64,000 nt of DNA from Flavobacteriales bacterium UBA6057 (GCA_002428995.1 DIYJ01000015.1:125144-189143), one strand, 5' to 3'; positions 35,759 through 50,965 are shown, counted from the first letter of the stretch. Notes: a model not told the origin generated them from the letters alone. Program-made: numbers and translations.

Positions 35759-38700
35759 TCAATAAGATCCATCTTCTTGCACAGGACCTGAAATGCCTTC
35801 TGGTCTGCCACCTGGGTCAGCCATAGGGGGATGCCAATCGTCATTTTCTGTTCCGCCTGCTTCGGTATGCGCTGATTCAGAACGGTTCGATATATCATTG
35901 AGCATGCGCTGCATCAGAGCCTCAACCGTGAAAGACGGTGTTTGCAAAGAGAGACCGGGCATCTCAAAGTCAACATCTATTGTCAAACTACGAGGCAATC
36001 CTCCAATATTACTTTGACCCATCCCGGAAAGGTTACCAACCGAATAGCTTCCGTTCAGTTCAGTACCGAAAATTCCGGGCCGCGTGAAATTTGGTCCCAA
36101 AGACGAAGCCCCTAATCCTTTCTTTAGCGGAGTCTTGTACTTGGTTTTTTGTGTAACAGGTTGTACCAGTGTGTGCTGTTGCCCCGGATAAAGTCCAAAT
36201 CCTTTAGGAGTTTTTATAGGTGTCGTGGGTGGTACGTAGCCCTTTGAATCTTGCTTGAACTGCTTCATCACCGCCTTATTCTCTCGGGACTCAGCCTTAT
36301 CTACAAATGACTTCCATGTATTTCCCTCAGTACCAAATTTGTAAGTACCCGAAAAGCTGTACGAGTCGATAGGCCTATCATCCATGCTTTCGTCTTCGAA
36401 TGTCTCTTTGGTTTCGGACTTAAAAGAGAGTTTTTGTTTCGTCTCTCCCGCCAAAAACACAAAGCTTGGATAGACTCTCATGGTTGCCCTTGTTTCCAAG
36501 GTTAATCCACCACCATAGGTTGTGTTAATCCCGGGCCCTTCTTTTGGTTTGCCATACTTCCATGAGAATTTAGTCTCAGCTCCAAAAGTCAAATTGGCTT
36601 GCTCTACTGAAAACCCTCTGCCAACCGTGAGAGTTAATCCTATGCCAGCACCAAGCCATGGCGGAGGATCAAAAGAATGAAAACTGACACCACTTAATCC
36701 TTCTGATTCAACATTGGCGACAGGATTATTATGCGCGAATTGATAAGGGGTAAGCTCCGGGAAATCCGGTGCAGCCGGATCAACCGCAAAAAACCGCGAC
36801 AACCTGGGGTCATGCATTCTGAATGAATAGTTGGCGGAGTTGCCGTCTCCCTTGAACTCATCATCCATTTCTTGCCCATTGATGCCGTACCTGTAATCCT
36901 CCACGGCACCCTTCCGACCCGGCATAGCCATGCCATAAGGATAATAATCCGTGTAGCGCATCACATCGGGCAAGTAGCCTACGGCAACATCTTCGGTAAA
37001 GCTGCCATAGATGTCGCCTGGACCGCTGATGGTGATGCTGCCCAGTGTAAACTTGCCGCCTGGGCTCCCTTGCCCCGCCCAAAAGAGCTTGGTTTTAGTA
37101 GAGGTGGCCGTAAAGGTGTAGCTATAGCTTCCGGTACTAAAGATATCCAGCAAGCCTAGGTTTCCACCTCCGGAGCAGCTCTGTGCGCGGGCTTTTACCA
37201 CTGGCACGGTTTGCTCCAGTATGTCAAAGCTTACCGTATAGGTCTCACCTGTTTCGGTAGCGATGGTGAGAAAGGCCAGGAAGTTGGTGCTGGAAGGATG
37301 TTCCACCGCCAAGTCAGAATTGCCATCGGCATTTACATCAGCAATGGTAGCGGTGGTGGTTCCTACTGGAGATAAAAACCAGGTGCCGGGAGCGTCACAG
37401 CTGCTGTTGGCAATCACAAAATCGCTGTCCAGATCATACTCGTCTGGCACCAGTATTTTACGGTCGGTGATCACCTCCTTTACGTTGCCGAGATGATCGC
37501 CCAACTCGTACATTTTCTCACCAATCATGCGATGGTAGACCACTGGTGCATCAGCTACTCCATATACGTCTCCCGGGCCTGTAATTTTCACATTGCCCAA
37601 GGTGAAGTTGCCCGTGCTGCCCCATCCTCTGAAGTAGACGCGGCTTTGTGTGGCATTTGCGGTGAAGGTGTAGCTATACACTCCTGGGGCTACTACGTTG
37701 AGAGAACCCAAAGAGCTACCTCCAATCCCACAACCGCGTGCCTGGCTGTATACCCATGGCACTGTCTTAGCTACCACTTCGAAGCTTACCGTGTAGGTTT
37801 CTGTTGGAATGGTGTTGAAGGTATGTGCCACTCTGAAGTTGGTGGCCGTTGCATTCATCACCGTTAAGTCCGTGTTGCCGTCCATATCCACATCGCTGAA
37901 TCCGTGGGTGGTGCCTGCGGTTTCGGTCATGTACCAGCTGCCAGGCGCCCCGCACAATGCATCTTCCAGGAAGTCATCAAAGCTGTAGGCATACGAGTCT
38001 TCCGTGATTTCTACGCTGCGCGTATCTAAACCATGGCGCTTGGAGCCATAAATAGTGGCTTCTGTGCGGTGTAGTTCGGGTTGACTCTCGGTCTTTTGAT
38101 AGATGGCCATTGGCACCCCATTGGCGTCCATGCCATACCATGTTTTGTTCCACTGCGCTTCGGGTAGAATATTGCCTCCCATATCGCGCGGCATTTCCAC
38201 CTTTAAGATGCGATTGCCCATCGGGCCGTACTCAAAATAAAGGTCAGGATCTGTGGACAATCCATCGCGCCAAACGCGCTTCAGTTTTCCGTTAGGATAC
38301 CATTCCAGGTAACCGATTCCTTCCTGAAGGTCGCTCTTTAATGCACCGTCACTGTGGTATTGGTAGTTGCCCGGCAATTGCCCATTTTGGATGTCATCAT
38401 AGGCAGTGCCTGCAATGGCGTCCTCCACATAATCCAAGCGGTTATTCGTTTCATAGGGCAACAGCGCATCGTCATAGGTGAACTGATCCATGGCATTGAT
38501 GGTAGCGCCAAAGGTGTAGGCACGCCTGTCAAGCGCGGTGATATTGCCATTCGGATCGTAGTCCACATGCACTTCGTAATCGCCTAACGTGTGGCTACCG
38601 CTGGCGGTCATGTTTTGCCGCGCAGCGTTTACGAACGAGTTCAACTCTGTGATGTCGCTGGCGCTGTGCACATGACTCTCTTTGAAGCGGTGCAACTGGT

Positions 38701-50700: not shown

Positions 50701-50965
50701 CAACCATCGAGGCTTGCTGGTCCATGGTGACATCGGCATCGTAGCTAAGGTTGATGGGGTAGCCACCTACTGTTAGTAGAGGTATGTTATAGTTAAAGCT
50801 ACCGGAGGACATGTCCACCAGTTGGCCGTCTGAGCCGCCTGAAAAATTACTGTCGGTGGGTCCGCCATTCGCGTGGGCGGGTTGGAAATAGGCAAGTAGC
50901 ATTCCTGGCATAACCAGGAGCGCTATGATTTTTGTAATAAAGGATTCTCTGATTCGTTGAAGCAT
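44798..50965 (-). CDS. Giant secreted protein (2055 aa) with SpvB/TcaC-like N-terminal domain, TcdB-mid-like region and C-terminal YD repeat; TcB-like partner of the RHS protein
   Basis: Signal peptide. N-terminal segment NYNIPLLTVGGYPINLSYDADV...LGWNLNLGAIQRVVRGVPD fits the SpvB/TcaC signature (P.L...G..P.LSL.Y.S...GW.L....I.R). Terminal YQYDENGRMVRVF repeat. A 12-nt gap separates it from the RHS gene. Confidence 0.65.
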   Translation of the reverse strand: MLQRIRESFITKIIALLVMPGMLLAYFQPAHANGGPTDSNFSGGSDGQLVDMSSGSFNYNIPLLTVGGYPINLSYDADVTMDQQASMVGLGWNLNLGAIQRVVRGVPDDFDGDEIVTEMNLRPRLNITNILSVSSEIVGADLELSAGSAETEHLAGSISTDFGFVFNNYTGNENIIGIGGGIGIFEKTGDDVGPSAFLNGGISSSSRSGLSTNLGVSISLGYDHKFSSSLGINRNSLYGSSLNTGFGYSHVTKKERQEGYKPEHGRYKKSTQGINLTGSFPLGMQAYSPTATFEFENKSFTFDLGAGGTVVAGFDVHGNGSRTKSTVCLKSNVRSQKAYGYMNQQNGYDQNALQDFNLSLPSIYENTNALPTPMPTNDYFMVNGSGMFRALRNDAGYVKSPITRSEGDATAFSGDAAFGAGFEAGVNVTYNWNNTTISNWEGNNPFSDMGLFEFEQTTPSTDPVVKGKYEHFSFIQIGNGSSVSDVRFTGIEEKKALRQEITEEDGTIVGHHYMPTDEGENYHPASGLHYQNERLDRSQVMLHSTNQELRLRGDDSFENYTLNNFSFSAGDYTGVAIKSRNEANYRNNHIGQLTIINGGGSRDVYGIPVLNSSQQVSFNISEYNNYDPVENAPAVDAQGLVEYIPGADNSLGNKRGDNHFYLNNHLPQHATSYLLTQQLSDNYVDRTGNGPTPDDYGSYTKFNYAYNGEKKWRFPYHHNKAIFNEGFKSNKLDDMANYAYGERDEWYVHSIESKDYIAEFVYSNRKDAHGVQDENGGVDASAKAKKLDQIKLYTRKGKEYGEGPIKTVHFNYSYELCKNIPDHIGFSETSETGPGKLTLESVYFKGQDSPQGELHKYKFTYGANADYALGQLDRWGNYQAGAAIDHDHTSSLDNAEYPYTTQNKSQADLNIQQWKLTAVDLPTGGRLEVDYEANDYEYIQDKEATRMYKIGGFYSTDVEPESFTPTAGDFGSALFDPDNDDIDNFYIKINLDVPITGNPTSARNQFEEHFLPERRFPEDRYLYFNTLLNLAPHNDGIVDPDVYEYIQGYASIIENSWYLLESSPGVWNAAVFRLKPAWLKSHTKPDPKGHPIWRKACQVVKQALPLVLYPENDLQAIYAKDGSINCGSSETEDGGTEPDMGDDSKNHKKNLKSIRSVYHMMRKTGYASRAVLPKCWVRMRSGLQSKVGGGYRVKEIRTYDNWNAFVAGESGAKYGTRYEYQTTNLAGDTISSGVTSYEPTNRGGDEIALRHPHFYVHEQKGTPSESFYTEFPLNEEIFASAQVRYSKVTSRPLDYSEHGLEVNTPGYTVYESYTARDYPLQFDYTNFKDELKPPGLAGFFGFNTSRFGVSFGAAVIANDMHGKFKQKRSFTADGNTIYLMKHEYWEAEDGTLTSKVPTINPGGTHQNRLIGMNIDLITHLSKTESNSSRVSGKTNFEFTPPFLFVPSFWPGFNDSESSVYSTLTTKVVYQSGLLKQVMVEDNGRAKYTTTLLYDAKTGNPIAKEVIPEKGDEDGIQKMYEYTYPAYWAYEGMGMASDNSGITRFDITGAGTTVLPGEKPFFYPGDELAIIEFDDSGILPVPLGGLPNHWVVENEITGAWFLADANGNVFNPNPSRLYWFKVQNPGKANLAGVGMASVSTLGTYAGDNLYTAGFTGHTHVINTSGTDFFEKAKLRTDPCTEEGDVINPYAHNLLGQWKQEHSYVFDGDRDYSADDSRKDGLLTEHQPFWKNEAGTWRAIYDPARTSDYDASDPLQDWIQTGSATLYDSYGFGLESKNAIDIYQSQGIGYNKRLQKSATANARYAESGFDGFEDYFSDGVYDGGSFTPYGCHTRHFGVPNGHNLVTDQEAHSGRYSVRAHGPYGVQFIYSTWDGTEPTATDHGQPFMVQEADIIPQLQLMTDQPENRYVLTVWAKKSSNGLLVTNPTSYTEAQVDISIAGMTDLVETRSNIIDGWQRIEITFNLPPSIPNNTLVQIRLRSMDGDVFYDDLRLQPYDSEMQSAAIDAIERRNMASLGSRDFATSYQYDENGRMVRVFQETERGVQTVQESRSGIKTNY

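Follow-up and report, generated by a model that had tools for sequence, protein, structure and literature searches.

The 64,000-nucleotide (nt) stretch of DNA analyzed here (hereafter the window) comes from Flavobacteriales bacterium UBA6057 (GCA_002428995.1 DIYJ01000015.1:125144-189143) and carries two giant genes, which we call gene A and gene B. Gene A encodes a partner protein of 2055 amino acids (aa) (positions 44798-50965, minus strand), and gene B encodes a 3008-aa protein with DUF6443 and RHS matches (35759-44785, minus strand). We consider it somewhat probable that this locus represents, in its minimal form of two genes, a widespread, uncharacterized, Sec-dependent system of Bacteroidota, in which two components serve to display or deliver an RHS polymorphic toxin and the product of gene A exports or presents the product of gene B. 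Both genes belong to families that are nearly always found together, the relatives of gene B terminate in polymorphic domains, gene A resembles known toxin shells in fold class, and a regulator is linked to the pair. We infer that the two proteins interact, that A serves in export, and that the pair is located at the outer membrane and acts on a target.

As predicted earlier from the sequence, the two genes are consecutive on the minus strand, with only 12 nt between the stop of gene A and the start of gene B. The chance of encountering 3008 consecutive open codons can be estimated as (61/64)^3008, or approximately e^-144, and in DNA of ~50% G+C content, frames that stay open for 6.2 and 9.0 kb are therefore not chance open reading frames (ORFs). 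The N-terminal 500 aa of gene A, used as the query in a search of sequence clusters at 50% identity, retrieved 3,636 cluster representatives, of which 756 have E<=1e-30. The pair is present in at least 527 loci of species-representative (reference) genomes, including those of Flavobacterium, Chitinophaga, Mucilaginibacter, Fluviicola, Salibacter, Saprospiraceae and Cytophagales, and the gene A family is from Bacteroidota wherever the source names the organism. The species from which the window derives is not among the reference genomes scanned, and its best match among the matches listed stands at 44%. The locus is not peculiar to this genome but an ordinary member of a very widespread pair, notable for the size of its family and for the lack of study rather than for any oddity of its own. 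Literature searches returned no description of the gene pair, as the original prediction of an uncharacterized system would have it, and a search for DUF6443 returned no papers.

Pairing was assessed in 87 non-redundant loci; 13 of these end less than 3 kb from gene A and are unscorable. A DUF6443-RHS gene lies downstream of the gene A homologue, on the same strand, in 73 of the 74 informative loci, with L048 as the sole exception. The order of gene A and then the RHS gene is common to Terrimonas, Pedobacter, Crocinitomix, F. columnare and Salibacter, and co-occurrence in a fixed arrangement, in different orders of Bacteroidota, argues that A and B are coupled in function. Most loci have an additional gene of 230-306 aa between the two. 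Upstream of the gene A homologue, an OmpH/Skp-like gene is directly adjacent in 32/90 loci and a ~370-aa DUF928-like gene is found in 39/90, sometimes together with a gene of ~800 aa. Genes A and B abut without an intervening gene in the window, in its clade (L007, L009, L010), and in Salibacter halophilus L060 and L085. Nothing in the window corresponds to the accessory genes of the Terrimonas, Pedobacter, Crocinitomix and F. columnare loci. In the 69%-identity relative L007 (positions 1-3969), a second, divergently oriented paralogous system encoding proteins of 2446, 362 and 856 aa adjoins the pair, and its 362-aa protein resembles the ~370-aa DUF928-like accessory of Terrimonas. Therefore, a paralogous locus may provide the accessories that the minimal form lacks.

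Gene B encodes the RHS protein that had been predicted, with YD repeats, an Rhs core, and a 311-aa C-terminal region. All of its features lie on the minus strand. A signal peptide (aa 1-27; 44705-44785), with cleavage between AYA and T, is followed by an N-terminal domain (aa 28-320; 43826-44704) that is conserved in the family alignment and has tblastn matches in 70/90 loci. The DUF6443 region (aa 321-600; 42986-43825), present in 76/90 loci, contains a PF20041 match at aa 329-408 that scores 29-35 bits against a cut-off of 27.8. Adjoining it is a cysteine-rich region (aa 601-1560; 40106-42985), present in 56/90 loci. The ~40 cysteines of this ~960-aa region, 32 of them invariant, point to disulfides and therefore to an oxidizing, extracytoplasmic compartment. 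The original prediction had regarded the ~1,500 extra N-terminal residues as unusual; they are indeed present, and they are conserved throughout the family.

The RHS/YD repeat region (aa 1561-2255; 38021-40105), identified from repeat matches and present in 63/90 loci, has YD motifs spanning aa 1644-1880. Its repeats are weak, scoring 26 bits for RHS_repeat in a fragment search and 18.2 bits for YD_repeat_2x (TIGR01643) against a cut-off of 15.8. Before the core, a domain of ~150 aa is tandemly duplicated (aa ~2256-2600; 36986-38020), as evident by an internal alignment score of 338. This domain is specific to the clade (8/90 loci), matches no PDB chain or Pfam family, and has no similarity to the carbohydrate-binding module (CBM)-like module of gene A that is described below. 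The Rhs-associated core (aa 2601-2697; 36695-36985) ends in ...VDP...NVESEGL and matches TIGR03696 at aa 2614-2697 with 38.5 bits against a cut-off of 32.5. Searches of the PDB chains with the whole protein sequences of gene A and gene B yielded no match. A family profile built from 16 relatives of gene B matches, through its core, YenC2 (E=8e-8), RHS2, RhsA and a bacterial teneurin-like protein (9pt5/9ifo, E=0.002-0.07, the former at 0.002). Judging from these profile matches, the core is homologous to the structures of TcC, Rhs and teneurin-like proteins.

Evidence that the system is one of toxins comes from the C-termini of the relatives. Homologues of gene B measure 2,200-4,700 aa, most have DUF6443 and RHS matches, and they belong to Bacteroidota wherever the source names an organism. 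The alignment consensus is lost after the core, where the C-termini vary and are 244-311 aa in length. Among the C-terminal domains of relatives are EndoU, deaminase, HNH, restriction endonuclease (REase), CdiA-C, Ntox21, ADP-ribosyltransferase, PT-HINT, CHAP, M23 and NlpC/P60 domains, such that C-termini of the peptidoglycan-hydrolase type stand beside nuclease, deaminase and ADP-ribosyltransferase types. This diversity marks a classical polymorphic-toxin family. A small ORF is located 3′ of the RHS gene in 20 of the 35 loci that have a complete RHS ORF, with gaps of ~30 nt or less and one of 152 nt.

The copy in the window departs from this picture. Its C-terminal domain (aa 2698-3008; 35762-36694) begins after ...NNPVANVESEGL, is rich in G, S, T, P and K, and has no cysteine. 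It matches no Pfam family, and its sole resemblance by local BLAST is to the tail of the relative P0123; it is possibly membrane-active. The interval from the gene B stop to the tRNA gene described below holds no immunity-like gene, only minus-strand ORFs of 34 and 40 aa that start with TTG, and there is no TcA-like gene within the 64-kb window. Both absences had been anticipated. The claim of an aspartyl autoproteolysis motif at the end of the core stands only in part, in that the first aspartate is kept (VDP, D2669) and the second catalytic position is glutamate (E2693), giving ESEGL instead of DPxGL. The glutamate variant is common to P0123, P0130 and P0131, whereas DPxGL is found in 8 of the 16 aligned proteins. 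Two of these departures, the ESEGL variant and the absence of an immunity gene, are particular to the subclade of the window.

Gene A is far more difficult to classify. Its signal peptide (aa 1-32; 50870-50965, minus strand, as are the gene A features that follow) has a cleavage site between AHA and N; the family consensus keeps ...AxA followed by LTGGPSQPE after the signal, and the structural model places an N-terminal helix at aa 2-26. The Sec signals of both proteins were judged by eye, without a predictor. They are present as claimed, but they are not as unusual as had been supposed, because Sec-signal SpvB-type polymorphic toxins, including some from Bacteroidetes, have been described previously (Zhang et al., 2012). 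Residues 50-110 of gene A (50636-50818) carry an SpvB-N-like motif, VDxxxGxFxYxIPL...LSY...GLGWxL...RGxPDDFxGD. However, gene A has no Pfam or NCBIfam match at E<=0.01. The SpvB match (PF03534) remains below threshold (E=0.14, 11.8 bits versus a cut-off of 22), and TcdB_mid matches neither gene A nor any of 22 diverse relatives, only one of which touches SpvB (E=0.019). A family profile searched against PDB recovers neither SpvB nor TcB chains; its sole match there corresponds to a CBM4-like module close to the C-terminus (E=1.3e-3), and a profile of the N-terminal motif yields a single marginal match, mosquito SGS1 (E=0.12), which we take to be Tc/Rhs-derived. Thus, the SpvB and TcdB_mid searches proposed as a check of the SpvB/TcaC-like N-terminus speak against it at the sequence level, and the resemblance survives at the level of fold.

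To model gene A, two AlphaFold2 runs were based on a family alignment of 50 sequences. The model of aa 1-1200 has a predicted local distance difference test (pLDDT) value of 81.0 and a predicted template modeling (pTM) score of 0.77, and that of aa 1101-2055 has values of 80.6 and 0.71. Foldseek searches with these models return, at E<=1e-3, only TcdB2-TccC3 and an Rhs core. As modeled, gene A resembles the SpvB-N/TcB/Rhs shell class at the fold level and would be a very divergent relative of it. The regions that resemble RHS/TcB shells cover aa ~340-1824 (45494-49948), with a low-confidence helical linker at aa ~1091-1189. The β-propeller that forms the TcA-binding gate is not among the fold matches.

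Between the SpvB-N-like motif and the shell, aa 111-339 (49949-50635) are predicted to form a barrel-like insert of 12 amphipathic strands. Fold searches give no residue ranges, and barrel-type matches were assigned to this segment from the secondary structure of the model. Its period-2 hydrophobic moment is among the strongest of the protein, with L, I, V, F and Y on one face and G, S, N and T on the other. The same segment in 3 of 8 relatives has sub-threshold Pfam matches, all of them to outer-membrane barrel families. From the model we infer that this insert closes into a barrel. Such a barrel would be seated in the outer membrane, in keeping with the amphipathic strands and the Sec signal, and with a Skp-like neighbor in many lineages.

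The remainder of gene A comprises a CBM4/22-like β-sandwich (aa ~1825-1995; 44981-45493) and a C-terminal YD-type hairpin tail (aa 1996-2055, SYQYDENGRMVRVFQETERG...; 44801-44980), which contains the sole YD motif of gene A and is conserved in the family. In F. columnare (L005, 1-9936), the gene A homologue ends at aa ~1857, and the last ~150 aa, consisting of the CBM-like module and the YD tail, are carried by a separate leucine-rich repeat/immunoglobulin (LRR/Ig) protein encoded just upstream of the RHS gene. Therefore, these two elements behave as a portable module, and this module is always positioned just upstream of the RHS gene. A similar split layout appears likely in L015, L017, L018, L021, L037, L041 and L089. 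The 414 gene A homologues are nearly all named 'hypothetical'. Inserts of PA14 and GLEYA adhesin domains occur in P0048, P0052, P0054, P0056, P0097 and other homologues, the named ones being from Chitinophagaceae or Puia, and suggest a surface-exposed, glycan-binding role.

The original prediction implied that A and B together form one closed cocoon of the TcB-TcC type, in which A would supply the lower half and B both the upper half and the cargo, and that this assembly is a self-contained encapsulation and delivery toxin that needs no TcA. In structure, gene A is indeed matched best by BC-fusion cocoons and SpvB-N, its terminal YD hairpin could extend the sheet of gene B, and the succession of A and B at a distance of 12 nt mirrors tcB-tcC. 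The core of gene B is homologous to TcC, and hypervariable regions of TcC are similar in size to the 244-311-aa C-termini seen here. However, we find neither TcdB_mid nor a β-propeller gate. Moreover, gene B alone has ~1,000 aa of DUF6443 and RHS sequence, which is enough for a complete Rhs cocoon, given that the corresponding chains of type VI secretion system (T6SS) Rhs proteins comprise 1,021-1,084 aa. The gene of 230-306 aa splits A and B in most loci, the tail module resides on another protein in Flavobacterium, and the profiles of A and B show no similarity. For these reasons we regard a shared cocoon as unlikely.

Far less probable still is that the pair represents the BC part of a classical toxin complex (Tc, ABC) directed at eukaryotes, with the TcA pentamer encoded elsewhere in the genome. 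The resemblance to TcB and TcC at the fold level is real, and the lack of an immunity gene in the window would suit a non-bacterial target. However, a TcA gene is found neither in the window nor recurrently in those loci of relatives whose gene tables were read, and the β-propeller that binds TcA is absent. Both proteins have Sec signals, and we know of no Tc subunit that carries one. In relatives, antibacterial-type C-termini are accompanied by immunity-like ORFs, and the main text of the Tc census paper never contains 'Bacteroidetes' or 'Flavobacter'. We therefore rejected the classical Tc toxin for want of a propeller and of TcA. In comparison with the BC subcomplexes TcdB2-TccC3 and YenB-YenC2, the pair also lacks SpvB and TcdB_mid matches at the Pfam level, gene A has a barrel-like insert and a CBM module, and gene B has its N-terminal extension of ~1,500 residues and glutamate for the second catalytic aspartate.

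Close precedents are the TcdB/TcaC-type toxins of Zhang et al. (2012), which consist of a signal peptide, SpvB, an integrin-like propeller, RHS repeats and a variable toxin. They share with the system described here their Sec dependence, their nature as SpvB-class/RHS polymorphic toxins, their occurrence in Bacteroidetes, variable toxins at the C-terminus, and immunity genes. Whereas that type fuses SpvB to RHS, the SpvB-like element here resides on a separate protein of 2,000 aa and is below Pfam detection, no propeller is present, and the RHS protein starts with DUF6443. The T6SS Rhs effectors (RhsA, Tse5, Tse15, Rhs1/Tre23) are also distinct, since the searches detected neither PAAR nor VgrG nor a clade domain, and the proteins of the pair are two to three times larger and include an obligate giant partner. 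Sec signals argue against export by T6SS, and for this reason and because no PAAR or VgrG domain was detected we rejected a T6SS Rhs effector.

A further possibility is that gene B acts alone, as a teneurin-like surface toxin with no need of a partner, and that gene A is an independent, co-regulated adhesin or glycan-binding protein whose 'barrel' is a modeling artefact. In the main text of Raoelijaona et al. (2026; PMC13018210), Sec-exported bacterial teneurin-like toxins are reported as rare; that text contains no 'Bacteroid*', and a keyword search found no partner protein in it. To the extent described there, those proteins and gene B are both giant YD-shell toxins exported by Sec. Each has an extended extracellular region at the N-terminus (an adhesion region in the teneurin-like proteins), a variable C-terminus (membrane-active in some teneurin-like proteins), and a downstream immunity gene, which on the gene B side is found in relatives. 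The E value of 0.002 between the gene B core and a teneurin-like protein, together with the CBM-like or PA14 modules in gene A and its relatives, is consistent with this scenario. However, the superfold of TTR, FN-plug and NHL domains in that description was not detected by Pfam, which finds no NHL or TTR domain in gene B. The nearly invariant pairing and the portable tail, whose position is always just upstream of the RHS gene, also argue against the independence of the two proteins. We consider a stand-alone toxin to be improbable.

Other export routes were considered as well. The C-terminal sorting domain used in type IX secretion (T9SS; Por_Secre_tail, TIGR04183/TIGR04131) was found in neither gene A nor gene B, although the search picked it up without difficulty in two more of the window's proteins, and a T9SS cargo was therefore rejected. 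In Crocinitomix catalasitica (L006, 1-1992), the gene that lies upstream of the OmpH-like one gives a weak match to a T9SS C-terminal sorting domain (E=1.9e-4), and so part of the extended system may be T9SS cargo. Type V secretion, including inverse autotransporters and TpsB/TpsA, differs in that Pfam gives no signal here for Autotransporter, IAT_beta, ShlB or POTRA. Furthermore, the predicted barrel is internal to an SpvB-like domain, and the cargo would be an RHS protein in which Pfam detects no two-partner secretion (TPS) domain. In its proposed workings the system resembles a hybrid between a BC cocoon and two-partner secretion/contact-dependent inhibition (CDI), and it is not a member of the Tc family.

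On the reading that we favor, of a two-component system in which A exports or presents B, gene B would be exported by Sec, and its DUF6443 and YD repeats would form a cocoon around the variable C-terminal domain. Gene A, as a Sec-exported obligate partner, would be anchored in the outer membrane by its embedded 12-strand barrel and would export gene B or present it at the cell surface. The portable CBM and YD tail of gene A may dock onto the β-sheet of gene B. The toxin domain would then be released or delivered on contact with a target, and the linked sensor-regulator would control expression of the pair.

Several observations weigh against this scheme. By every sequence method used, SpvB, TcB and RHS stay short of significance in gene A, and hhalign detects no relationship between the gene A and gene B families. 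The fold matches of gene A cover only ~230-320 residues with poor Foldseek TM-scores, and the barrel region has moderate pLDDT values (mostly 64-84). A barrel that is internal rather than terminal is atypical of outer-membrane proteins. Furthermore, the clade of the window is without the OmpH-like, ~370-aa and ~230-300-aa accessories found elsewhere. This copy also has no immunity gene, a C-terminal domain that cannot be classified, and glutamate at the position of the second catalytic aspartate, and its own toxicity, target and self-cleavage are uncertain for these reasons. The intact 6-kb and 9-kb frames nevertheless argue against decay.

Divergent from the pair, and upstream of it as the original prediction had described, is a gene for a hybrid regulator whose domain matches are TPR, HisKA, HATPase_c, Response_reg and HTH_18/AraC (51272-54970, plus strand). 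A homologous TPR-HK-REC-AraC regulator adjoins the pair in L007-L010, where its orientation and the surrounding genes differ. Thus, the linkage of the regulator to the pair is real and is conserved in the clade of the window. The longest ORF for this regulator starts with GTG at 51272 (1232 aa), whereas the gene caller chose a start at 51395 (1191 aa) and also placed a 73-aa ORF on the opposite strand at ~51153-51374. Beyond the regulator, overlapping ORFs of 332 aa (56959-57957) and 190 aa (57944-58516) are present on the strand of the giant genes and have no Pfam match. They were rejected as accessory genes of the pair because they are not homologous to the accessories of related loci. A second hybrid histidine kinase (HisKA-HATPase_c-REC; 4823-6619, minus strand) is encoded ~30 kb from the locus and has no evident link to it.

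At its other end the locus is bordered, as had been noted, by an initiator tRNA gene. ARAGORN and Rfam identify a tRNA-Met(CAT) at 35380-35453 (plus strand), 305 nt from the end of gene B, and it is the sole match of the Rfam scan. The C1:A72 mismatch and the three G:C pairs (GGG/CCC) in the anticodon stem identify it as a bacterial initiator tRNA. Two hairpins (AAAAAGCC...GGGCTTTTT) are located between this tRNA and the end of gene B, at 35458-35487 and 35640-35669. They are 83% identical, are 182 nt apart, and resemble a duplicated bidirectional terminator, although a consensus terminator scan did not call them.

The proximity of the tRNA had raised the idea that the 15-kb locus is a horizontally acquired island integrated at tRNA-fMet. 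Within ~5 kb of the pair there is also a tRNA-Met in L006 and L007, and the module of regulator, A and B occurs in different genomic contexts among relatives. However, the side and distance of the tRNA vary in these relatives, and housekeeping genes flank the locus in the window. The GC fraction is 0.50-0.52 inside the locus versus 0.45-0.52 outside, and we found no integrase or transposase in the window, no second copy of the tRNA 3′ end, and no att-like repeat. A search of relatives for an empty site by means of the flanking genes gave one match at 29% identity. Integration of an island is quite unlikely, and island status is unsupported. The tRNA serves only as a landmark for the border of the locus.

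The flanking genes of the window specify Mfd, DnaG, PheT and dehydrogenases, along with two T9SS cargo proteins. The genes for the latter, which have Por_Secre_tail sorting domains, are located at 20421-21707 (minus strand) and 62644-63537 (plus strand), and one product also has Reg_prop repeats; therefore, the genome appears to use T9SS. Two ORFs of 561 and 190 aa without a Pfam match (28890-31276, plus strand) lie between pheT and an SPFH/Band 7 gene.

As interpreted here, the locus joins an RHS polymorphic toxin to a divergent, TcB-like partner that is encoded separately and in which a barrel is predicted. For the window itself, the annotation is corrected in that the pair does not represent an insecticidal Tc toxin and its status as an island is not demonstrable. 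The gene A family has no Pfam model and is recorded as 'hypothetical' in nearly all sources, and we found no literature account of how Bacteroidota export and deliver numerous giant RHS toxins that have neither T6SS nor T9SS signals. We tentatively propose, as a broader and less probable generalization, that the gene A family constitutes a Bacteroidota-specific, Sec-dependent pathway for the export and delivery of such toxins. In this pathway, a TcB/SpvB-derived shell with an integral outer-membrane barrel would act as both translocator and anchor, with Skp-like or other accessories in most lineages. It would amount to an RHS analogue of two-partner secretion/CDI that operates in hundreds of species independently of T6SS and T9SS. 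If the partner is an outer-membrane TcB-like translocator, then Tc cocoons, Rhs effectors and type V-like secretion would be linked in one system. If true, this pathway would explain a large share of the interbacterial weaponry of soil, freshwater and marine Bacteroidota.

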